A DNA stretch of 64,000 nt from contig NW_027437455.1 in NCBI RefSeq assembly GCF_964204645.1, positions 1-64,000 on the forward strand, read 5' to 3'. Below, piece after piece: positions 19,640 to 50,313 of the stretch. Below the pieces are notes generated by a model. It searched no databases and was not told the origin of the DNA. It saw only the letters and a list, made by a program, of their open reading frames with translations. The DNA comes from Tubulanus polymorphus (Eukaryota > Animalia > Nemertea). The position numbers and the translations under genes were made by a program. Every line of letters starts with the position of its first letter. Positions within the stretch are counted from its first letter, which is position 1.

Positions 19640-19674
19640 CCATGGAATCAGTAACGTATTTTCACAGTCCATGG
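19640..19674. repeat. Degenerate CCATGG...CCATGG hairpin insertion
   Basis: CTTAA|CCATGGA...GTCCATGG|CTGAA (4/5 flank match). Confidence 0.4.
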
Positions 19675-20261: not shown

Positions 20262-20348
20262 TAAATTTATCATTTTTTAGGACTTAAGGACCAAATATCG
20301 GCAATATTTTTGATACAAACTGAGAAAGTATCAAAACATTTGAGAACG

Positions 20349-32382: not shown

Positions 32383-32520
32383 TTACAGTTATATTCAGAA
32401 CAGTTAACAAAGGGAAAGAAATTTATTGAATTATGGAATAATGATCCAAATAATGAACAATACGTTGAGGAATTTATTATCAAGGAATCGAAAGAACTTA
32501 TCAAAAGCAGCGAGGAATGA
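32269..32520 (+). pseudogene. Chimeric pseudogene: pPolB N-terminus (stop at codon 7) fused in frame to the C-terminus of an HNH-gene paralogue
   Basis: MEANKY*CPTCNIDIDKSQKARHNKTITHLENKLKLEY then LQLYSEQLTKGKKFIELWNNDPNNEQYVEE, which parallels MKLYLDQLDKAKTFVELWNSTHNEKYVEC at the end of ORF 32598-33251. Confidence 0.8.
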
Positions 32521-32597
32521 AAAAGGATGACGTTGGCCGAAGAAATGGAAGAGGATTCTAAAATGTTAATCAATTTTAATAAAAATATGTATAATAA

Positions 32598-33251
32598 ATG
32601 GAGCCGGAACAACCACAAACTATCAATATTACAAATAACACTGGCGTTATAAACATATATTACAAGAAATGTTCTAAATGTGAATTAAATAAATTAGCTA
32701 TAACAGAATTTAGTAAGCGTAAGATTAGCAAAGATGGTTTTCAAAATTGTTGTAAAACTTGTGCTAAACTATATACCAAACAATACCGAGAAGATAATAG
32801 AGAATCTTATAATGATTATATGACAGAATACATGAGAGAAAAATATAAAACAGATCTTAATTTTAGATTAAAACAATGTTTACGGTCTAGATTAACGCAA
32901 TTATTCAACAAAGAAACACATTCAGAAACACTATCTAATCTATTGGGTTGTTCAGATGAATTTCTCAAATCATGGATAATATATCAATTCGATGATAAAA
33001 TGAATATAGATAATTATGGTGAATACTTTCATATTGATCACGTGTTGCCGATTTCTAAATTTGACATGAGTGATGATTATGATAAGAAGCTAATCTGGAA
33101 TTGGAAGAATCTAAGACCTTTAGAAAAGAAAGAAAATATAATTAAATCTAACAAACTAGATATGAAATTATATTTAGATCAACTGGATAAAGCAAAGACA
33201 TTTGTTGAATTATGGAACTCAACACATAATGAAAAATACGTTGAATGTTAA
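32598..33251 (+). CDS. HNH endonuclease with N-terminal CxxC...CxxC zinc motif (large DNA virus/phage type)
   Basis: KKCSKC...CKTC; HIDHVLP...WNWKNLRPLEKKENIIKSNK HNH core. Confidence 0.85.
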   Translation: MEPEQPQTINITNNTGVINIYYKKCSKCELNKLAITEFSKRKISKDGFQNCCKTCAKLYTKQYREDNRESYNDYMTEYMREKYKTDLNFRLKQCLRSRLTQLFNKETHSETLSNLLGCSDEFLKSWIIYQFDDKMNIDNYGEYFHIDHVLPISKFDMSDDYDKKLIWNWKNLRPLEKKENIIKSNKLDMKLYLDQLDKAKTFVELWNSTHNEKYVEC

Positions 33252-33645
33252 ACGCTTAGAAAACCGGTTTCTCTCGATCTATGTCAAACCGCCTGTATGT
33301 AATTGTATTAGGTTGTTTACAAAAACATCTGTGCCGTATTTCATATTCAGTTGAATGGAGCGCACCTCATTTGAATATTGATCGAACGTGCTATTTCAGT
33401 TGAAAAGGATTAATCAATTATATTACAAAAGAAGGAACATCTGTTGCACCAGACGGTGTTTAGCTAGTGAATAACTACCAGTTATAAACGCGCAGCACAT
33501 AAGCATAGGAACGTATTGGATATTCTCTCTCAAAACACAGTTTACAGTTCTAAATCTAAATGTAAGTAAATATATTATGAAGTAGGGAAACCTTTAAACA
33601 TATTTAAGTATAGTAATTCATTTTCACGACATCTTTTAGATTAAA

Positions 33646-34112
33646 ATGGAATACAGAGATCAACCAGAAATTCCAAGTCAACCAACGGATGAGGAACTAG
33701 AAACGATAGATAGTGAAACTCAGGAATCAATAGAAATGGAGGATGAAACTCTCGTAATTGACGAACAAACTTCACAAAATTATAAGAACATTTGGACTAT
33801 CATCAAGAAATGGTGAAAACTCTGAGTGATGTAATATATAATAAACAATTACCGCGCGAACTACAATTACCAAAATTACCAGCAACGCGACTTAAATTGC
33901 TGTTGGGACTCAAATAATCGAAAACTAAGAAAATGAGTGGAGATATCAGTGCCGGTTTTGAAAGAAAACTGAGAAGAGTAGGTAGATTAATAAAATATGA
34001 AAAATTCAAAATATTAGGATTAGCATTTAGTGAAGTAGTAAGATATTTACCAGAAATTGAAGAAATGATTGGAAACAATCCAGTAATTAAAGAATTCTGG
34101 ACAAAATTATAA
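33646..34112 (+). pseudogene. Disrupted ~155-codon ORF with acidic N-terminus (one frameshift ~33785, one in-frame TAA ~33915)
   Basis: MEYRDQPEIPSQPTDEELETIDSETQESIEMEDETL...QNY / EHLDYHQEMVKTLSDVIY...LLLGLK*SKTKKMSGDISAGFERKLRRVGRLIKYEKFKILGLAFSEVVRYL...KEFWTKL*; coding-like purine bias throughout. Confidence 0.5.
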
Positions 34113-34202
34113 ATTATAACACTGAAGGTCTTTGTTATATAGATATCAAAAAATGTTATCTCGATTGTATATATCTGTTTTAATATTGTATTGTTTACTG
34201 TT

Positions 34203-34481
34203 AACTAAGTATTGCGTAATAACCGGTCCGATTGAACCGCTTTTCTATTGTTCTCCATTGTTCTACTATTGATCGTTGTTAATGGCGGCGGTTGTTCTGT
34301 ATTGATAGTTTACTGTTAACTGTGTATTGCGCAATAACCGGTCCTATTGGACCGCATTTCTATTGTTCTCCATTGTTCTATTATTGATCGTTGTTAGAAT
34401 AAAAATATAACTGTGTATTGCGCAATAACCGGTCCGATTGAACCGCATTTCTATTGTTCTCCATTGTTCTACTATTGATCG
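34203..34481. repeat. Three ~70-bp direct repeats carrying internal palindromes
   Basis: GTATTGCGYAATAACCGGTCCKATTGRACCGCWTTTCTATTGTTCTCCATTGTTCTAYTATTGATCG at ~34209, ~34324, ~34415. Confidence 0.9.
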
Positions 34482-34894
34482 CTAAAATTTACATAATAAA
34501 TATATGTGTTTATGAAATAATATTTCCACCAGTCGTTTCTTTGAATTTATTTTCAGTTTTAGGATTTATTATCGAGAATCCGAAATGACTTATCTGGACA
34601 GTTATAGTTACTGCTCCTAATAGATAGACAATAGTAGTGAGATAATCTAAATCCTAATTTAAATAAAATATAATAAAAAAACAATAACTTCAACTAGCTA
34701 GTCAATTCTATTATATTTTTAATATTTTCTTTTCAAAAAGAGAATACTTTATATTTTGAATAGATTCAAATAGAAATTCTTTAAATTCAAATAGCTAGTA
34801 TCAGTAGTCAATACTAGAATTCTTTAACTTTAACTATCTAATATCATTTGAAGAATACTTATAATACTATTCTTATTAAATTTCTCTAATATAA

Positions 34895-35500
34895 ATGACA
34901 AAGAAATCTAATAAAAATAGTATTGATATTGAAAAGACATTAGATGATTTAGGTCTAACAGATGATAATGATAATGTGGTAAATAAATGTGATAATAAAA
35001 TTGATAGTAATATTGATTATGAATACTATTTATATTGTAAGCATCATCTAGAACTATTGATTGCGAGTGGAAAAACTAAAGAGTTTATTGGTAAAACAAT
35101 AACTTTTCAAGAATTAGATAATATGAACAAAGAAAAAGTAATCAAATATTTTAAGATTTATGAAGAGTCAAGATTAGCTAGAATAAACGACTCTATAAGT
35201 GATGGTATTGTCAAATGTTATTCTAAGTTATGTAACCAGTTAATACCAATTGATGATGAAAATAAATTATATAATGATTTGAAAAATGACTATTTAGTTA
35301 TGACTGAATTACAAAAATGGGTTGGTTATGCTTCATTTCAATTAGGATCGGTTATGACATTAATTTCTACTGGAGTTATAACATTTTCGAACATCAAACC
35401 TATGGAATATAAATCAGGTAAGAACGAAACAGATGTACTACAACCAAACGTCGAAACAGAAAATGAATCAGAACAAAAATTAACTAAAATAAATGAGTGA
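34895..35500 (+). CDS. Hypothetical protein (201 aa) with a hydrophobic segment near the C-terminus
   Basis: Intact ORF with TAAATG start, overlapping the next gene; segment WVGYASFQLGSVMTLISTGVITF. Confidence 0.8.
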   Translation: MTKKSNKNSIDIEKTLDDLGLTDDNDNVVNKCDNKIDSNIDYEYYLYCKHHLELLIASGKTKEFIGKTITFQELDNMNKEKVIKYFKIYEESRLARINDSISDGIVKCYSKLCNQLIPIDDENKLYNDLKNDYLVMTELQKWVGYASFQLGSVMTLISTGVITFSNIKPMEYKSGKNETDVLQPNVETENESEQKLTKINE

Positions 35501-35840
35501 TGGAGTTAAGAAAAAGCCTAGATCCGAGAAACAAATTAAATGGGCAAGAGAATTAGGTAAAAGATCATCAGAATTAAAAAAAGCTAAGAAAAAGAAATTA
35601 TCTGATATAAATGAATCACCTGGTATTGATTCAAATAATAATCCATCTAATTCTTATAATAGTGGAAGAAATAATTACTTATATATTACAATTGGGTTAA
35701 TCACAATTATTATATTATCTGGTGTAATATATAAATCAAAATTCAAATCCGATGATAAAGATGATTCTAATGATAATAAACCTATCATACCAGAAAATAA
35801 ATCAAATGAAAATAAATCTAAAATATTATTAATGGATTAA
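35493..35840 (+). CDS. Small single-pass membrane protein with basic N-terminus
   Basis: KKKPRSEKQ...KKAKKKK; TM segment YLYITIGLITIIILSGVIY. Confidence 0.8.
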   Translation: MSDGVKKKPRSEKQIKWARELGKRSSELKKAKKKKLSDINESPGIDSNNNPSNSYNSGRNNYLYITIGLITIIILSGVIYKSKFKSDDKDDSNDNKPIIPENKSNENKSKILLMD

Positions 35841-35843
35841 AAT

Positions 35844-36932
35844 ATGATGAAAAAAGAACAATATTTAAGAGAGTTATATTATAACCCAGAAAGTGAAGTA
35901 TCATATTCAAGTGTTTCGGAATTATGGGATAAAATTAAATCTGATAAAGAAAAAATAAAATATAGTGAATTAAAATCATGGTTACAAAATCAACCCACAT
36001 ATCAAATTCATAAAAAGATGGATAAAAAATATTTAACAAGAAAAGTTATGGTTTCATATATTGACCAACAATGGCAAGCTGATTTAATTGACATGAAAAA
36101 CTTAGAAGAATATAACAAAGGATATTTTTGGATACTAAATGTTATAGATATATTCAGTAGATACGCATGGAGTATCCCGATTAAAAATAAAACTGGTATA
36201 GAAGTTACAAATTCTTTCAAATTAATATTTAAAGAAGCTATCCCAGATAAAATACAATTTGATGAAGGTAAGGAATTCTATAACAAACATTTTAAAAAAC
36301 TATTAACTGATAACGATGTAGAATATTTTTCAACACATTCAGATAAAAAAGCATCTGTTATAGAAAGATTTAATAAAACATTGAAAACTAGAATGTGGAA
36401 ATATTTCACCGCTAATGAAACATATAAATATATCGATGTGTTAGATGATTTAGTTAAAGGTTATAATAATTCTAAACATAGTTCTATAAATATGAAACCT
36501 ATACAAGCTAGAAAAGAAGAAAATTCAGAAATAGTTTGGAATAATTTATATGGAGCATTTGTTACACACGATTTCGGTGAACCTAAATTTAAAATAGGAC
36601 AACATGTTAGAATTTCTAAATATAGAAAAACATTTTATAAAGGTTATACCCCTAATTTTACAGAAGAAATATTTAAAATTAAAAAGATAATATTAACTAA
36701 ACCATTTGTTTATAAATTGTTTGATTTAAAAGATGAAGAAATATTAGGTTATTTTTATGAACAAGAATTATCATTAGTACCAAATCCAGATGAAATAGAA
36801 TACAAAATAGAAAAGGTATTGAAAACAAAAACTCTTAAAGGAAAAAAGTATTCTTTGGTGAAATATAAAGGATATGATGATAAATTTAATGAATGGATTT
36901 TATCTAGTAAAATTAAAAGAATAAATGAATAA
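35844..36932 (+). CDS. Retroviral-like (rve) DDE integrase with C-terminal chromodomain
   Basis: WQADLID, QFDEGKEF, KASVIERFNKTLK (D-D-E); VRISK...FYKGY; C-terminal EYKIEKVLKTKTLKGKKYSLVKYKGYDDKFNEWI chromodomain. Confidence 0.96.
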   Translation: MMKKEQYLRELYYNPESEVSYSSVSELWDKIKSDKEKIKYSELKSWLQNQPTYQIHKKMDKKYLTRKVMVSYIDQQWQADLIDMKNLEEYNKGYFWILNVIDIFSRYAWSIPIKNKTGIEVTNSFKLIFKEAIPDKIQFDEGKEFYNKHFKKLLTDNDVEYFSTHSDKKASVIERFNKTLKTRMWKYFTANETYKYIDVLDDLVKGYNNSKHSSINMKPIQARKEENSEIVWNNLYGAFVTHDFGEPKFKIGQHVRISKYRKTFYKGYTPNFTEEIFKIKKIILTKPFVYKLFDLKDEEILGYFYEQELSLVPNPDEIEYKIEKVLKTKTLKGKKYSLVKYKGYDDKFNEWILSSKIKRINE

Positions 36933-37536
36933 AGATTTATTTATATTTGAACCACATAATATGTTAATAACTGGAGTAACCAATTGTGGTAAAACACATT
37001 TCATATTAGACTTGTTAGAAACTATTTATAAAAATCATTTTGATAATATAATATTATTCTGCCCAACTTATGAAATGAATAAAACATATAATAGAGATAT
37101 AGTTAAGATAAAAAAGTTTATTATATTAGACCCTAAAACAGTAAAAGAAAATTTAGATAATTGTATAAAAATTACATTAGATATTTATAAAGGATCAAAT
37201 ACATTATTTATTATTGATGATTGCGCAAATTTACATGATTCTAAAATTAGAGAAAGTGAGTTATGTTATTTAGCTTTCTCTGGTAGACATTTTGGGATAA
37301 CAACTTGGGTTTTAAATCAAAAATATAATTCAATTGTTAAAGACTTTAGAGAGAATATAAGATTTCTAGTTTTATTTTATAACAAAGATAGAAAATCTAT
37401 GCAACAATCATTGGAAGAAAATCAAATTATACCTACTGAATTACATGATGAATATATGAATAAATTAAAGAATAATAAAGGTTCAAAATTATTACTGAGA
37501 TTACAATTTCCATATGAATATAAATTTATAAAATAA
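36925..37536 (+). CDS. A32/FtsK-HerA-like genome packaging ATPase
   Basis: Walker A GVTNCGKT, Walker B LFIIDD, GRHFGIT (RH motif) and NQ sensor. Confidence 0.93.
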   Translation: MNKDLFIFEPHNMLITGVTNCGKTHFILDLLETIYKNHFDNIILFCPTYEMNKTYNRDIVKIKKFIILDPKTVKENLDNCIKITLDIYKGSNTLFIIDDCANLHDSKIRESELCYLAFSGRHFGITTWVLNQKYNSIVKDFRENIRFLVLFYNKDRKSMQQSLEENQIIPTELHDEYMNKLKNNKGSKLLLRLQFPYEYKFIK

Positions 37537-37552
37537 AATCCTAATTCAAAAT

Positions 37553-38124
37553 ATTATAGAATTCACCGTATATTGATGGATGAGTGGATGAATTGGATGA
37601 ATTGGAAGAGTGGATGAATGGAAGAGTGTAATAATATATAATTTACATATGTTTTTTATTTTTAAAACAGAAAGAGTTTGATTTGAAGATGTCATATAAT
37701 AATAAATATATTTTTATAAAATAATAAAATGACAGATAATAAATGTCATATAATAATAAATATATTTTCATAAAATAATAAATAATAAAATGATAAATAA
37801 TAAAATGATAAATAATAAATATATTTTTATAAAATAATAAATAATAAAATGATAAATAATAAAATGATAAATAATAAATATATTTTTATAAAATAATAAA
37901 TAATAAAATGATAAATAATAAATGTCATATAATAATAAATATATATTGTGTTAAATTTAATAAAGAATAAAAATATTATATTTATACTCATACTATTCTT
38001 CCAATTTATGTGTTAAAAAGTAAAATATATATATTATTATACTCATCCACTCTTCCACTCATCCAATTCATCCAACTCTTCCAACTCATCCATTCATCCA
38101 TCAATATACAGTGAATTCTATAAT
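37553..38124. repeat. Internal inverted repeat (~90-100-bp arms of TGGAWGAR units) enclosing AT-rich tandem repeats, between convergent gene blocks
   Basis: ATTATAGAATTCACCGTATATTGA(TGGAWGAR)n at 37553-37640 versus its reverse complement at ~38026-38124; ATAAATAATAAAATG-type repeats at ~37690-37945. Confidence 0.9.
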
Positions 38125-38128
38125 CTTT

Positions 38129-39148
38129 TTAATTTTCATTTTCATATTTTTCTTTAAGCTTATTGTATTCTAAATTTATATCCATTTGCATTTTCTTTGA
38201 TATAATTCCTGAACGATTCTCGAGTTTATATTTATGGAATTTTACTTTTGAAAATATTTTTGGAATATAATTTTCGATTTCAGTTTTAGATGGATGTTTA
38301 TTTAAAAATTCTCTAAAATCATCATATTTAAGTTCAAATAAGTTCATTGCATAACTTACATTTGGTTTAAAGTTATCTAACTTTTTCAATATGGTAACTA
38401 TATCATTACTCGAGAAATAATCTATAAATGTTTTTCTATACCACCGATAATCTAATATATTATTATTATTAAATTTTGGATTTATAACTCTTGGATCTTC
38501 TATTACATTATCTGTACCAATATGTTTAATTGAGTATTTATGATTCAATTGTTTATCATATATTACATATTCTTTACATTTTTCACACCAAGATTTAAAT
38601 ACTTTTATTGCATGGGCTGAATCATTTCCACTTTTTGTTTTTAATTTATAATGTTTTGCCCAATTAGCCTTTGTTATACATTCATTACAGAAAGCACAAC
38701 AATTCTGATCCTCTTTACATTTATCTTTATATATATTGGCATATGTTTTTACTAATTGTAAAATATGTTCATCTTTTTTGATGTGTAATAAATAATCATT
38801 GTAATTATCAAAATCTTCTTCACAATACATACATCTGATGTTATCTTTTGGTTGAACATTTGATTTTTCTATTTTAGGTTCAATATTATCATCATTCGAT
38901 GTAGAAGGTATAACATTATCTTCTATTTTTATATCAATATTATCTTTTATTTTAGGTTCAATATTATCTTCTATTTTTATATCAATATTATTATTACGTT
39001 CAATTAAATATTCTTTGTATTGATTTAATTCATTTAATAAAAATGTTCCAATATATTCATTTATTCTTTTATAAGGTATTACATAATACAAATCATCATC
39101 GATTTCTTTATCAGCTTTGATTCTTTCATATAGTTTACCTCCTTCCAT
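38129..39148 (-). CDS. Zinc-finger protein (three C2H2/matrin-like fingers) with internal DNI(D/E)xKI repeats
   Basis: CMYC...HIKKDEH; CAFC...WAKHY; CEKC...NHKYSIKH. Confidence 0.8.
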   Translation of the reverse strand: MEGGKLYERIKADKEIDDDLYYVIPYKRINEYIGTFLLNELNQYKEYLIERNNNIDIKIEDNIEPKIKDNIDIKIEDNVIPSTSNDDNIEPKIEKSNVQPKDNIRCMYCEEDFDNYNDYLLHIKKDEHILQLVKTYANIYKDKCKEDQNCCAFCNECITKANWAKHYKLKTKSGNDSAHAIKVFKSWCEKCKEYVIYDKQLNHKYSIKHIGTDNVIEDPRVINPKFNNNNILDYRWYRKTFIDYFSSNDIVTILKKLDNFKPNVSYAMNLFELKYDDFREFLNKHPSKTEIENYIPKIFSKVKFHKYKLENRSGIISKKMQMDINLEYNKLKEKYENEN

Positions 39149-39180
39149 TTATTATATATATTTTTATTAAAGTTAAAATT

Positions 39181-40428
39181 TTAATACATAACACTATCTA
39201 ATTGAGAATTTACAATATTTAATTGCGCGTCAGATATAGTATAAATATGCATTTTAAAATTTTTGATTCCCTTTTTCTTTGTCATGAATAATTGTATTCC
39301 ATCTTTTGTATTTTGTAGTTTTTTTCCAGAACCATGTAATGAATTATCCTCTGTTGTTCTAAAATCTAACCATAATGCAAATTTATTACTGGTATAATAA
39401 TCAATTTGATTAATGTTACAATTTTCAAATGATTTTACTTTTTCATTCATAAAATGTTTTTTAATTTCTACCCATTGATCTATCATTCTCATTCCTTGAC
39501 AAAATATTTTATTCGCTATACCTTCGATAGTTATTTGTACTTTTGTTATTTCAGGATTATAATAATTGTCAACATTTATTGCACCATTAGTATACGTTCC
39601 AATGGTAAAAAATATTAATATACCTTTAATAGATCTTCTAGGAAAGTTAATATTCTCATTAATTATTTCATCATTTGCATTAATAGTTACAGTTTTAAAT
39701 TTATCAATATAATCATATAATAATGAAAATCCTTGATTGTATTGAGTTTGAATTGTTCTAGCAATATTTTCATCAGTTACTGTATCATATTCTAAACATA
39801 TATTCGATAATTTATAACTCATATCTTTATTAACGCTAGATAATACAATTTCATTTACAGGAGCAAATGTTATCTCAAATACAATATCTTCTTGAATTGC
39901 GTATTTATATAAAGGTGCATTATTATTTATCAATTCAAAGTCTAATGGAATTTTATATTTGCTTCCATATATACTTTTTATCAATTTATCTACATCATTT
40001 GTTAATATTGCGCTATTAGCTTCTGATCTTAATTTATTTTGGTTTTCTGATTGAATTCCTTGAAATATCATATTATTTCTATTTTCTTTAGTTAACCATA
40101 AATCTTTATAGTGCATAAATAAATTATAATCATCTAATGAGAAAACTGTTTCTGGACCAATCTTTATTGTTAACTTTTTAATCAAATATCTTCCAACATT
40201 ATCAACGACATAATTATTATTATTACCGATTACTTTTATATCAGCTGATAAATAAATACTGTTTGGAACATAAAAAGTATTTTGTGTTAATCTCGGAATT
40301 CTAACGTATAAAGTTTCATCGGGATTAATATTTGAAGGGTTATGAGTAATTATATGATGTGATCTTTCTGCTTTAATAGCATTAGATATTCTATGATTCT
40401 TAGAAGGATTGATATAACTCCCACTCAT
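39181..40428 (-). CDS. Major capsid protein (double jelly-roll, Polinton PY/hexon-like)
   Basis: 415 aa, beta-rich; NPSNINPDETLYVRIP, GRYLIKKLTIKIG, YKLSNICLEYD, KFALWLDFRT, LHGSG motifs recalled from invertebrate Polinton MCPs; position in the virion block. Confidence 0.82.
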   Translation of the reverse strand: MSGSYINPSKNHRISNAIKAERSHHIITHNPSNINPDETLYVRIPRLTQNTFYVPNSIYLSADIKVIGNNNNYVVDNVGRYLIKKLTIKIGPETVFSLDDYNLFMHYKDLWLTKENRNNMIFQGIQSENQNKLRSEANSAILTNDVDKLIKSIYGSKYKIPLDFELINNNAPLYKYAIQEDIVFEITFAPVNEIVLSSVNKDMSYKLSNICLEYDTVTDENIARTIQTQYNQGFSLLYDYIDKFKTVTINANDEIINENINFPRRSIKGILIFFTIGTYTNGAINVDNYYNPEITKVQITIEGIANKIFCQGMRMIDQWVEIKKHFMNEKVKSFENCNINQIDYYTSNKFALWLDFRTTEDNSLHGSGKKLQNTKDGIQLFMTKKKGIKNFKMHIYTISDAQLNIVNSQLDSVMY

Positions 40429-40448
40429 TTATTTAACAAAAAAATTAA

Positions 40449-41873
40449 TTATTTATTTTTAATCATGTTTACTAACCCAAAAATAATTGCACTTACAACT
40501 GTAATTAAAAATAAAATAATATGTTCAGCAGCAAAGTTAAGAATATTACCTGCAGATTTTAAAACAAAACCAACAATTGAAGCAATAACTCCGGGTAATG
40601 CTGCAGCAGATTTTTTAGATAGTTCCCATAAATATTTTGCTAATTTCTTTAAACCATCTTTAACTTTATCTTGTATAGAATTATTGCTTGGAGGTTTATC
40701 TGGTTTATTAGGAGTGGGAGTAGATTTCAAAGCATTTGATATTGCTAAACCAATTGTTGTAAATAACATAGTTACAGCTGTTAGAATGGAAAGAATTGTT
40801 ATTCCTTCTAATTTAAATAATAATCTTATTCTGTCTTTTAATGATATTTCAGAATCTGGTTTAATCAACAAATCTTTAAAAATAACTTTTAATCTATTTA
40901 TATTATAATCATGTGATTTTAACAATAATTTAATTTCTTCTTTTTGTAATTCTATGTTATATTCTAAATCATCAATTTCTTTTTCTAAACGTAATTCTTT
41001 TTGATTATATTCTATTTCATCAATTACTTGATGATCTAAATCAGACTTTAATTTTTCTATTTCTTTATTTTTATCAGATAATTCTTTTTCTAAAGTTCTA
41101 ATTTTTTGATCTCTTATACTTTTATTATGTGCAATTTTATCAGCTTCATTTCTTATACTAATAATTTCTCTAATTGCTTCATCAGAAAATATATTTAAAT
41201 TTTCTAATTCTTGATCTGTTGCATCAAGTAATCCATTTGGTAAAAGTTTTTCAGTTTGAACTTTATTTGATTTAAGTTTACTAGTTTTGGAAGTTATATT
41301 CTGTTCAGAAGTTGTTTCTGTTTCTAAATTATTATTGATTATCTTAAAAAATTTAGCATTTCTTTGTTTAAATTCTTTTATATTATCAGATCTTTCTTTT
41401 TCTGTAACATCAATTATAGCATCATTATTGATTTTCTTAATTCTAGATTGTTCTAATAAATTAAAAGTTGATTTTGTTATTATTTTATCACCACTTTTAA
41501 GATTTGAAATCTTAAAATAATAGTCACCTTTCAATTTCCAATAATATTCACCATTTAAAAATTTTAAATTTTTTACTAAATGATTCATACCTTTATTTGT
41601 TATATTGAATCCAGATTTTTCTAATATTGGTTTAAATTCATAAATAATTTCATTATATTTTAATTCTTTTTCTGTTATTTCTGGTACTTCATTTTCAATA
41701 CTTATCTTTGAACGTGTTTTATCAATATATTGAGGTGTAGTTAAATTAGAATTATATGCTGTTTCATTACCATCATTAAAACTTGTTTCATCAAAATCAG
41801 GTGGTTGTTCATCAGTTATACCAGGTTCATCAAAAGGATCCATTCCAATATCTTCTACACCTTCTACATCCAT
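40449..41873 (-). CDS. Coiled-coil protein with C-terminal hydrophobic/amphipathic helices (putative membrane-active virion protein)
   Basis: Acidic N-terminus, heptad region (IRTLEKELSDKNKEIEKLK), then ITILSILTAVTMLFTTIGLAI, LPGVIASIVGFVL, IILFLITVVSAIIFGLV. Confidence 0.75.
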   Translation of the reverse strand: MDVEGVEDIGMDPFDEPGITDEQPPDFDETSFNDGNETAYNSNLTTPQYIDKTRSKISIENEVPEITEKELKYNEIIYEFKPILEKSGFNITNKGMNHLVKNLKFLNGEYYWKLKGDYYFKISNLKSGDKIITKSTFNLLEQSRIKKINNDAIIDVTEKERSDNIKEFKQRNAKFFKIINNNLETETTSEQNITSKTSKLKSNKVQTEKLLPNGLLDATDQELENLNIFSDEAIREIISIRNEADKIAHNKSIRDQKIRTLEKELSDKNKEIEKLKSDLDHQVIDEIEYNQKELRLEKEIDDLEYNIELQKEEIKLLLKSHDYNINRLKVIFKDLLIKPDSEISLKDRIRLLFKLEGITILSILTAVTMLFTTIGLAISNALKSTPTPNKPDKPPSNNSIQDKVKDGLKKLAKYLWELSKKSAAALPGVIASIVGFVLKSAGNILNFAAEHIILFLITVVSAIIFGLVNMIKNK

Positions 41874-41889
41874 TTACATAATAAAAAAA

Positions 41890-43278
41890 TTAAAATTTAA
41901 AATATAATATTCCTCCGATTACAATTCCTATACAAGTTATAGCTAATTTAGTATTTTCATGGGATTTATTATCATCATTTAGTTTAATTATATCATGTTG
42001 AATTTTATCAGTTCTATTATTTTCTGATGTATTGTAATCTTTTATTTTAGAATCATTATCCAATTTAATATTCTTAGTTTTAGTTTCTGTTGATTGAATG
42101 TGTTTTTTATTTTTTTCACCTTCCATTAATTTTGGAGCAGTAATAATCTTTTTATTTATATCATTTAACCCAAATGAATTATTTATTGTTGCAGTTTTAA
42201 TTAGATTATTATAACCAATTATATTTCCCATCTTTAATACTAAATCATTAGAAATAATTAATAGATTAGGGCCTATACAATAATTAAGTCTTACATGAGA
42301 TTTATCTAAATAATTTTGATATCTTATAATGTTTTCTGGAATCGATCTATTTTTATCATTATGAATTGAATCTTCAAATAAAACTTTAAACTGGTTTTGT
42401 GTATCGAATGATGTATTCAAATTTCCAATTATCGGTGATCTTGTTTCAACTTGTGATCCTAGAATACAAATCAAATAAGTTCTAATAGATTGATTTATTC
42501 TTTCTATACCTGATTTAGTAAAACCTTCACTATTTTCTAAAATAAAATAAACCCAACCATTATTGTTTTCTTGTTTTAAATTATCATAAAATTTTGGTAA
42601 TTTATTGAAATTTAATGTTTCTAAATCCTTTGTTTCTATTTTACCATAACCTAATTTTTTATTATAGATATTATAAAAACTATTAGATGGTATGGGAAGT
42701 GCACAATATTCTGCAATCTTTTTAGGGCATGGAAGTGATCTTATTGTTCCAATTTTTATTCTAAAATCAGAATTATTTATATCTATATTAAATTCATTGC
42801 AAATTTTATAAAACTTAGATAAATTAATATTATTATCTAATTCTTTAAAATATCTAGATCCTGGTAAAGCGCACTCTAATTCATTTAATATTATTCTGAT
42901 TTGAAAGTATGTATGAAATCTAAATAAACTTTGAATTAGTTTATATTTAGAATTATTTAAATGATCATTCCAACTTATTCCACATCCTGTTGTTGCACAA
43001 TAAACAGCAAAATTTAATTGGTTCTGCCAATACTTCATATTAGATTTTAATAACCATTGTTTTTCATCTTTCAATTTTTTAAAATTAATTAAATATACAT
43101 GAAATATATTTTCCATCTTTGCATTAAAATTATTAGTTTCAGTAACGTAAATTTCTAAATTAGTTAATGAATCTAAAACTTCATTTCTATATGTAATATC
43201 TTTATTAAAATCTATTGCTGGAATATTATATTTAATTGATTTATTATATCGGAAAGTTTTTGGAAAACTATCTGCCAT
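41890..43278 (-). CDS. Conserved Polinton hypothetical protein with C-terminal membrane anchor
   Basis: 462-aa intact ORF; WQNQLNFAVYCATTGCGIS and FRFHTYFQIR motifs recalled from related elements; C-terminal LAITCIGIVIGGILYF. Confidence 0.75.
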   Translation of the reverse strand: MADSFPKTFRYNKSIKYNIPAIDFNKDITYRNEVLDSLTNLEIYVTETNNFNAKMENIFHVYLINFKKLKDEKQWLLKSNMKYWQNQLNFAVYCATTGCGISWNDHLNNSKYKLIQSLFRFHTYFQIRIILNELECALPGSRYFKELDNNINLSKFYKICNEFNIDINNSDFRIKIGTIRSLPCPKKIAEYCALPIPSNSFYNIYNKKLGYGKIETKDLETLNFNKLPKFYDNLKQENNNGWVYFILENSEGFTKSGIERINQSIRTYLICILGSQVETRSPIIGNLNTSFDTQNQFKVLFEDSIHNDKNRSIPENIIRYQNYLDKSHVRLNYCIGPNLLIISNDLVLKMGNIIGYNNLIKTATINNSFGLNDINKKIITAPKLMEGEKNKKHIQSTETKTKNIKLDNDSKIKDYNTSENNRTDKIQHDIIKLNDDNKSHENTKLAITCIGIVIGGILYFKF

Positions 43279-43295
43279 TTATATAATTTAAAAAA

Positions 43296-43730
43296 TTAAT
43301 AATTTATTAATTCTTTTAATAATTTATCTTGTTCTTCAACTGTTATATGACCATTTAAACTTATTATATAATCTAGTGTGTTCTTTAATTTATTAATTTC
43401 TTTTATATTAGATTTTATTTTTTCTTTATTACTTTTTATATTTAATTTTGAACTTATACCAGTTAAAACACTTGAACTTAATCCTAATACACCAATTGAT
43501 ATAGCTAAAGGTGTTAATGGACTGAATATTGCTAGAAATGTTATTACAGAACTAATTGTAACCGAACCACTTATAATCAAATAATATATAATTTTACTTT
43601 TTAGATATTTTTTCTTTTTTATCTTTAAGTCACTTTCAAATTCTAATATTTGTTTTTCTAAATATGTTTTTAATTTAGTTTTATTTATATCATGAGGAAT
43701 AATATCAATACTATCAACTTTATCTTCCAT
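43296..43730 (-). CDS. Two-TM membrane protein (144 aa)
   Basis: IIYYLIISGSVTISSVITFLAIF and LAISIGVLGLSSSVLTGI flanked by helical charged segments. Confidence 0.8.
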   Translation of the reverse strand: MEDKVDSIDIIPHDINKTKLKTYLEKQILEFESDLKIKKKKYLKSKIIYYLIISGSVTISSVITFLAIFSPLTPLAISIGVLGLSSSVLTGISSKLNIKSNKEKIKSNIKEINKLKNTLDYIISLNGHITVEEQDKLLKELINY

Positions 43731-43749
43731 TTATTTAGAATAAAAATTA

Positions 43750-44167
43750 CTAATTAGTAAACTTATAAGCAACAAATATAACAATAACAGTTCCACCTAA
43801 AATCCATATTATTTCATATTTCTGTTGTTCTTTACTCGGGGTATAATAATCTGATAATTTAGGTTTGTATAGATTTTTCTTTATTTGTTACTGCGTTATA
43901 TAAACTCATTGCATCATCAACTGATTGAAAATCTCTATGTGAAATCTTCTGATCATATAATTCTTTATTGATGTAATCCATATAGTTTTGTCTCTTTTCT
44001 CTATATTCTTCTGCAGCTTTATTGTATTTCTCTAACGTTAAGTTATGTCTTCTTTGTTCTCCTAATGAACTATTTTTATCAATATGTTTAAATAAATATC
44101 CACCACCAGTAAATGCTAAAGCGTTAACAATTGCCGATCCTATAATAGTTATAATTGCAGAAGCCAT
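43750..44167 (-). pseudogene. Membrane protein gene interrupted by a +1 frameshift near 43875 (annotated ORF 43859-44167 is only the 5' part)
   Basis: After ...AVTNKEK the +1 frame continues NLYKPKLSDYYTPSKEQQKYEIIWILGGTVIVIFVAYKFTN* to 43750, filling the gap up to the next gene's upstream motif and adding a TM helix. Confidence 0.8.
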
Positions 44168-44190
44168 TTATTTAGCAAAAAATTATGCAT

Positions 44191-44412
44191 TTATATGGGA
44201 GGAATATATTTTTGTTTTTCCAAATAATCAATAGTTAAATTAGATAAAGTAACTGCTAATGTTAACTTTAAAATATCATTTATATCAAATCTATCAACAT
44301 TAACACTTCCCATTTTGAATACTTTTTTTAATACCATTGAATAACCAACAGTTCCAACTGATAGTAATGCGCCATTATATAATCCAGTTATTATCCACTT
44401 ATTATCACTCAT
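44191..44412 (-). CDS. Small hydrophobic protein (73 aa)
   Basis: Two hydrophobic stretches, C-terminal DYLEKQKYIP; TAAATG start; tight packing. Confidence 0.75.
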   Translation of the reverse strand: MSDNKWIITGLYNGALLSVGTVGYSMVLKKVFKMGSVNVDRFDINDILKLTLAVTLSNLTIDYLEKQKYIPPI

Positions 44413-44769
44413 TTATTTATCAAAAAAATCACTATCATCAAAATATTTAGTTATCTTAGTGATGATTATTTCAACATTTATTTTATTACTAGTTTCATTT
44501 GTATATATTTCAATTATTATTTTTTTAATATCATCGATTATAAAATCTTCATCTAATTCATAAAATCTTAAAGATTCTCTAATTAAATTAGTAATCTTTT
44601 CTACATTTAAAGTTTCTTTATCTATTGTTGTTTCATACTCAAATGTTGTTTCATTAGAAAATACAATATTTTTGATATGTGTTATTACATCATTAATATT
44701 AAATTTCATTTCTTTCTCACGTTTAAAATCAAATCCAAAACATATACTCGGTCCAACAGTTATATTCAT
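44413..44769 (-). CDS. Hypothetical protein (118 aa)
   Basis: Intact ORF, TAAATG start, stop abuts the next ATG. Confidence 0.7.
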   Translation of the reverse strand: MNITVGPSICFGFDFKREKEMKFNINDVITHIKNIVFSNETTFEYETTIDKETLNVEKITNLIRESLRFYELDEDFIIDDIKKIIIEIYTNETSNKINVEIIITKITKYFDDSDFFDK

Positions 44770-44785
44770 TTATATATCAAAAAAA

Positions 44786-45542
44786 TTACTCTCTACATCT
44801 TATAACTAATTCATATATCACAGGAAAGTTATTTAAATCAATTAAGTATCCATTATGATTTCTTATTTCTAATTTAAAATTATTAAATTTAGGAATGCAA
44901 GGTTTAAAATCACATTCTGTTAAATTATAATTTATTTGAGTTCCAAATTGTTTAACATTTTTTTAGCGGTAAAATATTTAGTATACTAGAACTACAAATT
45001 GTTTCTTTAGTTGCTTCGAAAGTTTTTGTGGGCTCGATTAAATTGCAATAAATATAAAAGTGTGTAAAAGGTATTATATTTGGCGTAGTATCAACATTTG
45101 AATAAACTTTATTTGGATTAACTCCTAGCATTTTAGCTAATGGTTTTCTTACTATGAATTTATATTGTTCATTAGTTAACTTTATTCTTATTTTATTAGT
45201 ACTATCGATTTTATTAAATTTAATGTTAAACCCAACAGATTCACCCACTTTTAACCGAGCTCTTCTATTAATTTCTTGTGCTAATGTATCTAAATTATAT
45301 AATCCTGGTCTTAGAAATAGATGATACCATTTATCCATATTTCTATCATGAATCATAAACAATCTATGATCAAAACTTTTATCCGATATATTGTAAAAAG
45401 AATTACATAAACTTATATTAACTAATTTTAAATCTACACAATTCTTAAATTCTCTATCTAATTGTACTAATAAATTATGAGATTTATAATTTGTAAGTTT
45501 TCTAGAATCAACAAATATTCTATATTCTTTTAATTCCGCCAT
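44786..45542 (-). pseudogene. Minor capsid protein (single jelly-roll penton, ~251 aa) with a +1 frameshift in an A7 run at 44958-44964
   Basis: IFVDSR, SFYNIS, LRPGLY, LAKMLG, FYIYCNLI motifs. Removing one A restores ...LPLKNVKQFGTQINY...FKLEIRNHNGYLIDLNNFPVIYELVIRCRE*, the typical penton C-terminus, ending at 44786. Confidence 0.85.
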
Positions 45543-45559
45543 TTATTTTACATATTTTC

Positions 45560-45901
45560 TTATTCGAAATCTATTTCATGGTGTCCTTTTTCATTCTTAC
45601 CTTTGTATATGAAATAGAAATCTCCAGAACATAATTCTTCTAGATCTTCACTTGATAATCTATGAAATCTATCTGGTAAATAAGTCCTGAATTTATATTT
45701 ATTTCCTTTTAATCCTTCATATTCTAAATGAATTACTAATTTATCTCCATATTTATTAGTAATTGTAACAATATTTGTAATTAAATATTTCTTGTGAATT
45801 GTTAACTCAGTTAGTTTTTTGAATTTATAATCTACAGATTTTACATTTGTGGTATCTTTAATTCTATCTAAGAATTCATTGTGTACTTGTTTACTCTCCA
45901 T
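45560..45901 (-). CDS. Small beta-rich protein next to pPolB (possibly OB-fold/ssDNA-binding)
   Basis: 113-aa intact ORF (FKKLTEL...KYGDKLVIHL...TYLPDRF...FIYKG); function is inference only. Confidence 0.65.
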   Translation of the reverse strand: MESKQVHNEFLDRIKDTTNVKSVDYKFKKLTELTIHKKYLITNIVTITNKYGDKLVIHLEYEGLKGNKYKFRTYLPDRFHRLSSEDLEELCSGDFYFIYKGKNEKGHHEIDFE

Positions 45902-45929
45902 TTATTATACAAATTTTAATTGAAATTTA

Positions 45930-48900
45930 TTAACACGCTAGAATCCTTTTCATAATCTCATTTTCTTTTGTTTCTTCTCTTTTGAATTTTATATATTCAT
46001 CTAAATTGCAACCATAGGCGACTGTGTGGATTCCATCATCTAAAATATATCTTTTATCATCAAATGGATTTAGACTTATCTTCTCTATCTCTTCAATAAA
46101 CATTTCGTGGTACTCAGATCTTAAACATTTCATTTTATGTTTTCTAACTTCTTCATTAAATATACAATTGATGTAATCTTTAAAATGAATATTCTTTTCT
46201 ACTACACTTTTGGTTATTCCTTTTAACTTTTTAGCTTCATGTTCTTTAGTTTTATAACTATACATTTTAGATCTAATACCAATGAACTCTATCATTTCTT
46301 CACCGCCTAATTCATCCTTAAACTTCCCAGGAACTTTTTTATTATCATTGCTAAACAATTCATGATCTTTAGGATAGTTACTGAAATCAAAATGGTGTTT
46401 TAATATTTTTAAGTCTTTTGTTATGTTATCACTTTTTATCTTTAATATGTAACTGTCAGTATCTAGATATAATATTTCTATATTTTTTTCTCCAAAATGG
46501 GGTTGTAATATGTTATAGTAAAATTGATACATTAATAACTTTGATAATTCTAAAACCGATGCACCAACATAGATTGGTTTATTGAACTTCATAGAAGTTC
46601 TTTTTAATTTAACTGCTGCTAAATTTTCATCGAATATTCTATTACCTATGAATTTCGGATACGATTGCAAATGTCTAATTCTTTTACCATTACTGACTAA
46701 CTCAATGTCGTTTCTATTACGAATATTCTCACAAGTCTTACCATAAAACGCATTATTCATCAATTTAAAAAAATCCTTCTCAAAATCAGTTTTAGCTTCA
46801 GTTCTCTGTGTAGTATTAAAATCTATATATTTTTCTAACCACTTAGATTGACTAAATGAAATATATCTATGTACTTTTTTTAGAATCATTCCTTGATTCA
46901 AATAGAATTTTAACATTCTATAATGCACAACGTAATTATATTTATCTTCTTGAGTTACCATTAACTTTTCAGTATGAATATGATTATCGGGTTTAATTCT
47001 TTTTTGATAATTTGATAATTCTTCATGTTTAACAGTTTTATGTTCGGGACAATATGCTAGATTTCTAGATTTGAATTTAATATTTTCAGGGTATTCTAAA
47101 TCTACAACAAAGAAGTAACCAATATCTGAATCATCTGCAATATCTAGGATTCTTTTCTTCCAATCAAATTTATCAATTTGTAAAACTTCAGTTATTTCAA
47201 ACATCCCATAAGGTTGTGGTTCTATCATTGCCCAACCATAAAGATTATTTGCATCTATGTATAATAATTTATATCCAGGATTATCATTTACATTGAAATA
47301 TCTATCACCCAATACACCTGAAACACCTCCTCTTATAGATTTTTCAAATAATAGTAATTGATCTATATTTGTTAACAAGTCCATTTTTATATCTGTAAAT
47401 TTTAATCCACAATCCCATGTTAATCCTGGACTAGAATAACAATGACAAGGATCAATATTGAAATATTTTAGGTTTACATCTCTAAACCTTTCGAATATAT
47501 CGGTTAATAATAATACATCTGATTTTAAATATAAATCTACTAATTGTCCATGATTTTTAATTTCGAAATGATTCCAAATATTCAATGTTCTATTATAGAC
47601 TTCATCTTTAACATATTCATTTTTTATTTCATCATAGAATTGTTCTTTCAATAATTCAGTTATTTTAAAATCATTATGATTTTTATAGAAAGAATATGGA
47701 ATTGCTCCTTTATATCTCATTAATTTAAAATCATCATAATTTGGGTAATATTCTTTTAATATCTTTAATTCATCATCAACTAATGATTTAGATAAATTAT
47801 CTAATGAACTATTTAAAAATCTATATGAATCTATAAATCTTAAACAACCAAATTGGAATGATATATAATTCTCAGATGTTTTAGCTAACATTCTAAATTT
47901 ATAAGTTGGTATTTTATCTTTTGATCTATTTGAATTTAATCTTTCTATTTCATTATTAATTTCTTCTATTTTATGACACAGTTGTTTGATAAATAAATGT
48001 GCGTCATATCCTGATAGATTATGAAATATAATGGGGACAAAATTTACTTTTTTGGCTTGCAAATTACAATTCTCATGTGCAGCGCCTCTAAACTTTCCAT
48101 TCAAATGATCATGGTCTCTTACTTTTTTATCTTTATAATTAAATATCTTTTCACAATAATAACATTTATCTGCAAACGCAAATACTTCTTTATCTTCTTC
48201 TGTCATAATTATTTCTTTATTTGTATTCAATAATTTACTAAATCTTATTTCATATTCAATTAATAAGTCACAAAAATGATTGATAACATTTTCATTTCTA
48301 TAATGATAATATTCACTTTCAATTAGTTCTGGATAATCAGATTTTATATATAACCCGAAAGCAGCAGCTGATTGATGAATCATTTTAATAGTATTTGTTA
48401 TTGGTGGTTCTTCTGAATAATCACTTTCATTAGAATTTAATTTCTTTCTTTTATAATATATATCTTTTCTATCTTTATCTGTTAATTCTTTATTTAATGA
48501 TTCAAAATCTCCATATATTACAAATGGTACTTTATTTTTGTAATCATATTTTTTGAATTCTAATATTTTATCTTTTTCATTTGGTAAAACTAATTTACAA
48601 TAATCATGATTATCACATAATTGTTTATGATTTAATAATGCACCTTCAGTTCTGAATTTATGTAAACATTTTCTACATAGATATATTTTATTATCAAAAT
48701 CATTTTCTGATTTAAAAAATAAATCAATTCTTTTAATCCACATATAATGATTCTCATAATATAGTATATCTATAACATCATTTGAATCATAATCTTTTGA
48801 TAGGTATAAAGGTTCTAATGTATAATGTTTAATATTATTTCCTTTCGTATTTGGTAATTTGATTAAATCAAATACATTTATCTTTATATTATTATCTCTT

Positions 48901-49964
48901 TCTATTTTTGGAATATTTTTAATTCTAACAGGATACTTATCTATCTTATAATTATTTTCAAATTGTTTATAATGAGTTAATCTATAAGTATGTTTATTAT
49001 AATCTTCAACTGGGTGTAAACAACTTATTATAGCCCATAGAAAACATTTATCATCTTCATTTTGTATATTTATTACACCATTAGTTTTAAATGGTAGTTT
49101 AATATAACTTGTTCCATTTATACTATCATCTTTATAATATGATAAATTATTTTCATCAATTGGTTTTGATTTAGTTAACTTATTATATTTTGTGTTATAA
49201 ACATGTAAAGTTATAAATATTATCTCATCAAACATTAAACCAGATCCTTCAAAATATTTCTCTTCTATTTTAGTTTTTATTTCATTATAACATTTATTTA
49301 ATTTATCATCTATATGTTGTTTAGATATAATATGTTGTGAATGAGAATTTATATTATATATTGGTTTATCTTCAGATTTTATAAACTTTACTTTAACTGA
49401 TATACTAATTTTAGGATATTCAACATCTGTAATTATTTTTATTATTTCTTTCATATTTTCTAAATGTTTTTTATTTTCTTCTAATGTTTTTCCTTTATGA
49501 AATTTAAACTCGATAGCTGCTGGACCAATATCACTTTTAAATGCTTCGGTTATCTCTATATCTTTTTTATTATCTAATGAATTAATATAATTTCTTACAT
49601 CTTCCATATATGGTCTTTTATTGTTTAATTTATTTTTTATTCTTTTAATTGTCTTCTGTTTCTTATCGTTATCATTATCAAAATAATCTTCACCTAAAAT
49701 ATCATTATTCTTATTTCTAATATGACTTATAGATTTTAAATGTTCTTTATAATATCTTTTATCACTGAATGATTGATTACATGTATCACATTTGTATGTT
49801 TCTTTTTCATTCTTTAATTCTTCTAATTTAGTTTCTAATATATCATCCTTATATTCTAGTTTCAATTTATTCTCTAAATGTGTTATAGTTTTATTGTGTC
49901 TTGCTTTTTGAGATTTATCTATATCGATATTACATGTTGGGCAGTAGTATTTATTTGCTTCCAT
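45930..49964 (-). CDS. polB: Protein-primed family B DNA polymerase with N-terminal zinc fingers, putative vOTU-like protease region and an inserted endonuclease VII-like domain
   Basis: Exo I YGDFES, Exo II FHNLSGYD, Exo III YLKSDVLLL; Pol motifs YIDANNLYG, KLMNNAFYGK, YLDTDS; CYYC...VRDHDHLNGKFRGAAHENCN (EndoVII-like); DDKCFLWA...ENHY (vOTU-like Cys/His). Confidence 0.97.
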   Translation of the reverse strand: MEANKYYCPTCNIDIDKSQKARHNKTITHLENKLKLEYKDDILETKLEELKNEKETYKCDTCNQSFSDKRYYKEHLKSISHIRNKNNDILGEDYFDNDNDKKQKTIKRIKNKLNNKRPYMEDVRNYINSLDNKKDIEITEAFKSDIGPAAIEFKFHKGKTLEENKKHLENMKEIIKIITDVEYPKISISVKVKFIKSEDKPIYNINSHSQHIISKQHIDDKLNKCYNEIKTKIEEKYFEGSGLMFDEIIFITLHVYNTKYNKLTKSKPIDENNLSYYKDDSINGTSYIKLPFKTNGVINIQNEDDKCFLWAIISCLHPVEDYNKHTYRLTHYKQFENNYKIDKYPVRIKNIPKIERDNNIKINVFDLIKLPNTKGNNIKHYTLEPLYLSKDYDSNDVIDILYYENHYMWIKRIDLFFKSENDFDNKIYLCRKCLHKFRTEGALLNHKQLCDNHDYCKLVLPNEKDKILEFKKYDYKNKVPFVIYGDFESLNKELTDKDRKDIYYKRKKLNSNESDYSEEPPITNTIKMIHQSAAAFGLYIKSDYPELIESEYYHYRNENVINHFCDLLIEYEIRFSKLLNTNKEIIMTEEDKEVFAFADKCYYCEKIFNYKDKKVRDHDHLNGKFRGAAHENCNLQAKKVNFVPIIFHNLSGYDAHLFIKQLCHKIEEINNEIERLNSNRSKDKIPTYKFRMLAKTSENYISFQFGCLRFIDSYRFLNSSLDNLSKSLVDDELKILKEYYPNYDDFKLMRYKGAIPYSFYKNHNDFKITELLKEQFYDEIKNEYVKDEVYNRTLNIWNHFEIKNHGQLVDLYLKSDVLLLTDIFERFRDVNLKYFNIDPCHCYSSPGLTWDCGLKFTDIKMDLLTNIDQLLLFEKSIRGGVSGVLGDRYFNVNDNPGYKLLYIDANNLYGWAMIEPQPYGMFEITEVLQIDKFDWKKRILDIADDSDIGYFFVVDLEYPENIKFKSRNLAYCPEHKTVKHEELSNYQKRIKPDNHIHTEKLMVTQEDKYNYVVHYRMLKFYLNQGMILKKVHRYISFSQSKWLEKYIDFNTTQRTEAKTDFEKDFFKLMNNAFYGKTCENIRNRNDIELVSNGKRIRHLQSYPKFIGNRIFDENLAAVKLKRTSMKFNKPIYVGASVLELSKLLMYQFYYNILQPHFGEKNIEILYLDTDSYILKIKSDNITKDLKILKHHFDFSNYPKDHELFSNDNKKVPGKFKDELGGEEMIEFIGIRSKMYSYKTKEHEAKKLKGITKSVVEKNIHFKDYINCIFNEEVRKHKMKCLRSEYHEMFIEEIEKISLNPFDDKRYILDDGIHTVAYGCNLDEYIKFKREETKENEIMKRILAC

Positions 49965-50313
49965 TTTAATACTATATTTTTTATTAAAATTGATTTTAGA
50001 AGTTCAATGATTTAAATGTTATTCATATATGTGAATATTTTAAGAGTAATAGGGGTTTAGTTGTTTCAAGCTAAAGGTTGAACGGGCGGGTGAGTAAAAA
50101 TGAAAAAACATAAAAATAATAACAATTTCTACTTGAATTAGGAGTGAAACTCATAAAAATGAAAAATAAATTCGAGCGTGTGAGAATTTATTTTTCATTT
50201 TTATGAGTTTTGCGAGTAATTCAAGTAGAAATTGTTATTATTTTTATGTTTTTTCATTTTTTACGAGCTCGACCGTTCGACCTTTGGCCTGAAACAACTA
50301 AACCCCTATTACT
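49851..50313 (-). repeat. Right TIR (463 bp), outer 269 bp (50045-50313) self-palindromic
   Basis: Ends ...AAACCCCTATTACT|GACATT; reverse complement of 31920-32382. Confidence 0.95.

Follow-up and report, generated by a model that had tools for sequence, protein, structure and literature searches.

Positions 1 to 64,000 of contig NW_027437455.1 from the nemertean Tubulanus polymorphus (the window) hold a complete, 18.4-kb Polinton/Maverick-type element whose genes share a start signal resembling the late promoters of poxviruses. The hexamer TAAATG forms the start of 14 of its 16 genes, the exceptions being the integrase (TAAAAT-ATG) and the protein-primed family B polymerase pPolB (TAAAATG), and seven of the 14 carry a run of T shortly upstream. 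An initial annotation had reported this count, and the starts of the open reading frames (ORFs) bear it out. The signal is conserved among related Polintons, and its architecture, judged from sequence, is closest to poxviruses among the viruses sampled without being exclusive to them. We are inclined to think, with somewhat better than even confidence, that the conserved TAAATG and its T- or A-rich core are promoters for helper-dependent, post-replicative transcription by a co-infecting poxvirus-type virus. By analogy with integrated viruses of protists, the element is thus a candidate provirophage of such a virus.

A start signal shared by one Polinton clade

The seven T-run starts quoted in the initial annotation were all found where it had placed them, on the minus strand:

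40426..40445, minus strand: T-run start signal of the capsid gene (T7, 6-nt spacer, TAAATG)
41871..41890, minus strand: T-run start signal of the 474-aa gene (T7, 6-nt spacer)
43276..43296, minus strand: T-run start signal of the 462-aa gene (T6, 8-nt spacer)
43728..43747, minus strand: T-run start signal of the 144-aa gene (T5, 8-nt spacer)
44165..44183, minus strand: T-run start signal of the 102-aa ORF (T6, 6-nt spacer)
44410..44429, minus strand: T-run start signal of the 73-aa gene (T7, 6-nt spacer; the sole case in which TAA is the upstream gene's stop)
44767..44786, minus strand: T-run start signal of the 118-aa gene (T7, 6-nt spacer)

The run is thus 5-7 T long. Five of the seven starts have a 6-nt spacer before TAAATG, and the other two an 8-nt spacer. 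The pattern A-T5+-N5-9-TAAATG occurs at 7/16 gene starts against 1/690 other ATGs. It has eight sites in the element, while 500 dinucleotide shuffles gave a mean of 0.75 and a maximum of 4, so that the comparison with AT-matched shuffles, which the annotation had called for, comes out in favour of the motif. TAAATG itself is found at 25 of 285 out-of-frame sense ATGs, as opposed to 14/16 gene starts (Fisher p 3.6e-12). The internal-ATG control proposed earlier proved invalid in frame (0/71), because TAA would be a stop there. A further regularity is the T located 9 nt before the T of TAAAT, present in 14/14 starts and in 19/45 non-start TAAATG sites (p 8.8e-5). At -10 from the same T, T is found in 9/14 starts, and -9 equals -10 only if the first A is taken as origin.

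The other seven TAAATG starts mostly show an A-run (AAAAT or AAATT at -13..-9) where the T-run would be. Besides the capsid gene, the T-run block contains genes for four proteins with hydrophobic segments. The annotation had assigned the T-run architecture to the virion genes; among these it is shown for the capsid gene only. In this copy, the A-run class takes in both the ATPase gene for packaging and the gene of the candidate minor capsid protein. In raw DNA reads from a second sample of the same species label, four promoters vary by one base in the length of the T-run or of the spacer.

Conservation was assessed in 83 related loci, with L002 dropped from the start counts as a duplicate and only homologous ORFs with aligned N-termini considered. 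In a capsid tree built by a quick method (60 rows), the element sits in a 15-row clade with SH-aLRT 99. TAAATG forms 45/52 starts in this clade (15 loci, GC content 0.20-0.44), compared with 0/45 in AT-rich outgroups (18 loci) and 1/164 in GC-rich ones (45 loci). When capsid-gene starts alone are counted, near-duplicates removed, the figures are 10/11 in the clade and 1/30 outside it. Base composition fails to explain the motif, because clade members at 40-44% GC retain TAAATG. The conservation in related Polintons that the annotation had proposed to examine is therefore present, and the alignments indicate that the start motif is conserved under lineage-specific constraint, independently of base composition. 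The signal is retained despite changes in gene order and is present on accessory genes, such as the deoxynucleoside kinase. The capsid, ATPase and zinc-finger genes keep their T-run or A-run class among the closest relatives.

Two further observations concern the loci compared. The deoxynucleoside kinase gene of a close relative (L003:10343-10981) has a T-run TAAATG start. In addition, a second, long-branch group (L053, L055, L056 and L060; about 35% capsid identity) has TAAATG in 6/6 starts, which means either that the motif was gained independently or that the branch is misplaced.

TAAATG could also be a translation-level or host-specific start context and not a promoter (an in-frame stop that guards the ATG, coupling of stop and start, or a trans-splice signal), an explanation that we judge very improbable. 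AT-rich genomes often have A-rich start contexts, and a looser TAAA(A/T) lies within 3 nt of the ATG in 19/45 AT-rich outgroup starts. Yet the exact hexamer is found at none of those 45, and such a context leaves the fixed T at -9 and the fixed-distance T-run unexplained. Two variants were rejected: for stop-start coupling, TAA is the upstream gene's stop in only 1/14 cases, and for a trans-splice acceptor, AG follows the T-run in 0/7 T-run starts.

Comparison with poxviruses, other giant viruses and a sister clade

Published accounts give vaccinia late promoters a T-containing core separated by 5-7 bp from TAAAT(G/A) (PMC5294985) and a conserved T at the 10th nucleotide upstream (PMC11980589); intermediate promoters have TAAA and an upstream region that prefers A (PMC11980589). 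As in vaccinia, TAAAT overlaps the start codon in 14/16 starts of the element. A T-rich core precedes it in seven of these at a distance close to the 5-7 bp of vaccinia (five spacers of 6 nt, two of 8 nt), the other seven being without a T-run. The element also has a second class with an A-rich upstream region, and one copy of the signal per tightly packed gene, both again as in vaccinia. Its invariant T sits at -9 from the T of TAAAT and would agree with the vaccinia position only on a count from the first A. The signal stands at 88% of its genes, whereas about 40-50% have it in the central region of poxvirus genomes. TAAATG also starts an entomopoxvirus gene (PMC3061580).

We compared these starts with 200 chordopoxvirus ORFs and with 1,092 ORFs from 77 unclassified non-pox giant-virus loci. 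In a first, separate sample of nine chordopoxvirus loci, TAAATG starts 10-12 of 21-23 ORFs, and T peaks at -12..-10 and -7. The stricter T4-N5-8-TAAATG is found at 7/16 element starts, 24/200 chordopoxvirus ORFs and 8/1,092 other giant-virus ORFs. A matrix separating pox from non-pox starts scored the element and its clade at +0.78, shuffles at -0.64 +/- 0.32, poxviruses at +2.0 and the others at -2.5. Moreover, five poxvirus records among the matches listed carry an 18-nt pattern derived from the element where their P21/A17 membrane gene starts.

Several results weigh against a poxvirus attribution. Plain TAAATG starts 151/1,092 non-pox giant-virus ORFs (85/200 in poxviruses), and it reaches 10/21 ORFs of locus L216 and 5/20 of L205, some of them with T-runs. 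The 18-nt pattern has at least 120 matches, and of the 22 at ORF starts among those listed, five are poxviral and another five are Thy1 genes of unclassified records. The matrix score of the element and clade is well under that of the poxviruses themselves, whose set contains repeated orthologues across genomes, and 4/14 element promoters score zero or less. At -9, where T is invariant in the element, the poxvirus sample has 49% T. A search within 60 nt of each start, those of pPolB and the integrase among them, gave no early-type promoter. The T-run or A-run class switches between some orthologues, which makes a two-stage (late and intermediate) reading soft. Lastly, a sister clade encodes a VLTF3-like protein, and at least six ORFs of the element are without assigned function. 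Since TAAATG is common in non-pox giant viruses, "poxvirus" is a lean and not a diagnosis. What stands of the late-promoter architecture announced by the initial annotation is the layout and its nearness to chordopoxvirus starts, and not the specificity of TAAATG as such.

These counts also bear on a reading in which the promoter is served by a helper outside the poxviruses, either a cytoplasmic DNA virus of another nucleocytovirus lineage or a polymerase of linear-plasmid type that likewise initiates at TAAA. We regard this as unlikely, if less so than a start context. TAAATG is present in 14% of non-pox giant-virus ORFs and in up to about half of them in one locus, with T-run cases in L205, L089 and L114. 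In yeast linear elements, transcripts with poly(A) leaders arise from a TAAAN initiator (PMC6211774), and the late promoter of African swine fever virus is bipartite too. However, tight T-run spacing is rare outside poxviruses (8/1,092 against 24/200). No clear enrichment upstream of the element's genes was seen for the asfarvirus TATATA (3/16, about 1.5 expected), the mimivirus early motif (0 against 0.1), the late motif of CroV (7/16 against 5.9), the yeast upstream conserved sequence (3 against 2.7) or the baculovirus motif, the last two in the forms that we take to be theirs (ATNTGA for the yeast elements).

The sister clade mentioned above uses another motif. Loci L017 and L035 carry TTCT-N7-10-TATA. 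Together with L016 they form a group in which 9/17 starts have this motif (shuffle maximum 1), and the other Polinton groups are without it. In non-pox giant-virus loci it reaches 45/1,092 versus 9.6 shuffled, and in poxviruses 4/200 versus 1.9. A scan of 50 of the 74 unassigned outgroup ORFs revealed a VLTF3-like protein in L017/L018 and L035 (Pfam E 6e-4 and 4e-5), and the profile has no match in the element or in other loci. The genes are:

L017:6543-7049 and L035:5082-5576: VLTF3-like late transcription factor genes of the TTCT-N7-10-TATA elements

By analogy, the difference in motif between the clades fits promoters tracking different helpers, and the clade-specific motifs parallel the distinct promoter motifs of the EMALE types, provirophages of Cafeteria. 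As a separate observation, sister element L017 contains a Bcl-2 family gene (L017:2448-2858, Pfam E 2e-18).

In L017/L018 and L035, motif and VLTF3-like gene occur together, so this lineage can carry its own transcription factors. This keeps alive a helper-independent explanation, in which host Pol II would be guided to an initiator peculiar to the element, with next to no leader, by one of the element's own unassigned proteins, such as the zinc-finger-like one of 339 aa or the one of 201 aa. The chromodomain of the integrase, which points to a nuclear phase, speaks for it as well, and yet we would give it only a low probability. TBP, TFIIB and VLTF3 are without match in the complete element. 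Since the ATG belongs to the conserved part of the signal, a Pol II leader would not fit, and the geometry of Pol II initiation prevents a TATA-like box that directly abuts the ATG from working as its TATA box. Because the signal is common to nearly all genes, accessory ones included, none stands out as an early gene from which the factor could come. AATAAA is not depleted on the coding strands (81 observed against 78 expected, 20 of them in pPolB), nor clearly so in the outgroups (53 against 57 and 16 against 21), a measure that does not discriminate between nuclear and cytoplasmic expression. Depletion of TTTTTNT is weak (z -2.0 in element and clade).

The element, its genes and its setting

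The element and its genes are as follows:

31920..50313, no strand assigned: complete Polinton/Maverick-type element (18.4 kb, interior GC about 17-32%)
31914..31919, plus strand: 6-bp target-site duplication, left copy (GACATT)
50314..50319, plus strand: 6-bp target-site duplication, right copy
31920..32382, plus strand: left terminal inverted repeat (463 nt, 99% complementary to the right repeat)
49851..50313, minus strand: right terminal inverted repeat (pPolB start inside)
32598..33251, plus strand: HNH-like protein, 217 aa (A-run class TAAATG start; weak HNH match in homologue L001)
34895..35500, plus strand: conserved protein, 201 aa (TAAATG start)
35493..35840, plus strand: 115-aa protein with one hydrophobic segment (A-run class TAAATG start)
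35844..36932, plus strand: rve integrase with C-terminal chromodomain (start TAAAAT-ATG; PF00665 E 8e-9)
36925..37536, plus strand: A32-like packaging ATPase (A-run class TAAATG start)
38129..39148, minus strand: Cys/His-rich, zinc-finger-like protein, 339 aa (A-run class TAAATG start; weak zf-U1 match in the L001 homologue)
39181..40428, minus strand: major capsid protein, double jelly-roll, 415 aa (AlphaFold pLDDT 85; best fold match in Foldseek PBCV-1 capsid, E 2e-16)
40449..41873, minus strand: coiled-coil protein with hydrophobic segments, 474 aa (matches in 29 ORFs of related loci)
41890..43278, minus strand: conserved 462-aa protein with C-terminal hydrophobic helix
43296..43730, minus strand: 144-aa protein with two hydrophobic segments (weak SLATT-like matches)
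43859..44167, minus strand: 102-aa ORF with hydrophobic N-terminus (full-length relatives 132-156 aa)
44191..44412, minus strand: conserved small protein, 73 aa
44413..44769, minus strand: 118-aa protein
44952..45542, minus strand: candidate minor capsid protein, 196 aa (A-run class TAAATG start; weak DUF5901 match, E 0.0013)
45560..45901, minus strand: 113-aa protein adjoining pPolB (A-run class TAAATG start)
45930..49964, minus strand: pPolB, 1,344 aa (EndoVII domain; start TAAAATG)

The 16 ORFs are those of at least 73 aa. Together with the terminal inverted repeats and the 6-bp duplication, the pPolB, the rve integrase, the double-jelly-roll capsid and the A32 ATPase place the element among Polintons/Mavericks. 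The two copies of the target duplication match perfectly, and with 99% complementary terminal repeats this suggests a recent insertion. As in a provirophage, the copy is integrated and no RNA polymerase was detected: profile scans of the 16 ORFs gave no match to RNA polymerase, TBP, TFIIB or VLTF3, and besides pPolB no ORF is big enough for an RNA polymerase. Nor was a poxvirus polymerase subunit found in these 16 ORFs or in 21 further ones. On this point the scans agree with the initial annotation.

Many pPolB homologues at 40-57% identity carry PF03175. In the fold search with the capsid, the mavirus capsid ranked below the PBCV-1 and iridovirus capsids. The one capsid relative named to a eukaryote, 39% identical, is from a bivalve, and neither the capsid protein nor its alignment found relatives in viral_contigs. 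The 196-aa protein is labelled a candidate minor capsid protein on motif resemblance. The 102-aa ORF, shorter than its full-length relatives, probably carries a break close to the 3' end here. The helical core of the 462-aa protein is modelled with confidence; searches by Atlas, PDB sequence, Foldseek and VIA-align returned no match, which does not by itself show a new fold. The 113-aa protein has no family match and no structure match. No Pfam or NCBIfam match to an adenovirus-type cysteine protease was found in the element, where several ORFs are without assignment.

A 118-bp satellite flanks, on both sides, the AT-rich island that holds the element, and one satellite insertion site was seen. 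In the second sample, mapping of 1.9 Gb of reads to region 39100-46000 covered it about 55- to 1,140-fold with reads mostly 90-99% alike, from which depth and likeness we infer a multi-copy, diverged family.

Other features of the window are noted here. The outer 269 nt of each terminal repeat (31920-32188 and 50045-50313) form a long imperfect palindrome (-106 kcal/mol, hairpin z -28.6). Each palindrome arm has AAAAATGAAAAA twice, far from any start codon, and this sequence resembles what we take to be the poxvirus early consensus. A purine-rich sequence of about 100 nt ends both convergent gene blocks (37535-37640 and 38028-38142), its copies in inverted-repeat arrangement; it is a possible 3'-end signal common to both blocks and had no match in the 83 related loci. 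The 1.6-kb intergenic gap contains a 92-nt repeat in three copies (34190-34487). Two small plus-strand ORFs lie outside the 16 (33646-33816, 56 aa; 33933-34112, 59 aa), the first starting in TAAAATG as pPolB does. Elsewhere, a 6.2-kb non-satellite insert (14049-20277) has diverged terminal inverted repeats of about 340 nt, and the satellite orientation flips across it.

Proposed helper-dependent expression and known systems

If the signal is indeed read by a poxvirus-type helper, the element would be silent in uninfected cells. Upon co-infection, a free copy of the element would reach the cytoplasmic factory of the helper, whose RNA polymerase would read the TAAATG promoters after replication. 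Transcription would begin in the AAA of TAAAT and slippage would add a 5' poly(A) leader, so that no 5' untranslated region would be needed. The T-run genes (capsid and membrane-like proteins) may act as late genes, and the A-run genes (ATPase, zinc-finger and replication-side) as intermediate-like ones. It is tempting to go further and propose that the whole Polinton clade consists of provirophages of an undiscovered invertebrate poxvirus lineage, having copied its late and intermediate promoter classes, and that sister clades were re-tuned to other giant-virus helpers, one of them with its own VLTF3-like factor, promoter type in animal Polintons thus recording which large virus is the host of each lineage. 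This broader version is tentative and, in our opinion, rather doubtful.

The clade-wide, composition-independent promoter signature predicts a poxvirus-type virus for the element's host. Searches with RPO132 and VITF-3 returned named chordopoxviruses, fish poxviruses and deep relatives (P0281, P0283, P0423-P0426). No entomopoxvirus was among these matches, which points to limited search sensitivity. Among the deep relatives, P0283 and P0424-P0426 are poxvirus-like RNA polymerase and VITF-3 sequences from public assemblies; P0369 has no locus in viral_contigs. Three terms of the initial annotation, an entomopoxvirus helper, an inducible antiviral system and its storage in satellite DNA, go past the evidence; nothing in the comparison, which covered chordopoxviruses and non-pox giant viruses, points to an entomopoxvirus.

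Among known systems, the yeast linear elements pGKL1/2 are similar in their TAAAN initiator, poxvirus-like polymerase and poly(A) leaders, and they differ in having their own polymerase and an upstream conserved sequence, a motif that is not enriched in the element (PMC6211774). With Mavericks/Polintons (Polintoviricetes), whose hosts are almost always animals, the element shares pPolB, rve integrase, terminal inverted repeats, 6-bp duplication, capsid and A32 ATPase (bioRxiv 10.64898/2026.06.19.733378; PMC11131425). Most members of Group 1 Maverick-Polintons have an adenovirus-type cysteine protease, which was not detected here. The word "promoter" does not occur in either of these two papers.

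Poxvirus-associated Polinton-like viruses (PLVs) are already published: AHEV_PLV1/2, CBEV_PLV1 and Ca_PLV1 have been proposed as poxvirus parasites, one of them integrated in an animal genome, and the link with entomopoxviruses comes from co-sequencing with occlusion bodies (Barth et al. 2024, PMC11296320). Compared by description, our element resembles them as a Polinton-like virus with a proposed link to poxviruses. They are about 12 kb long, with an adenovirus-type protease and no rve integrase, whereas the element has 18.4 kb and an rve integrase. "Promoter" and "motif" are absent from the main text of that paper, and our search of the literature (mainly non-subscription journals, main texts only) turned up no integrated Polinton described as having poxvirus-type promoters.

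The closest parallel in strategy is found in protists, where promoter-matched, helper-induced integrated viruses are established (PMC10945749, PMC8547959). Like the mavirus/EMALE provirophages of Cafeteria, the element is integrated and multi-copy, has an rve integrase and pPolB with no RNA polymerase detected, and its genes share a helper-type promoter whose motif differs between related types. Unlike them, it carries TAAATG instead of the CroV-type TCTA, and its capsid belongs to the Polinton/PLV lineage. Palindromic repeats are also known in Halocafeteria elements, mostly in those without pPolB. If our interpretation is true, promoter motifs could match such elements to helpers from sequence alone, and the provirophage strategy of protists would extend to chromosomally integrated Polintons and poxvirus-type helpers.

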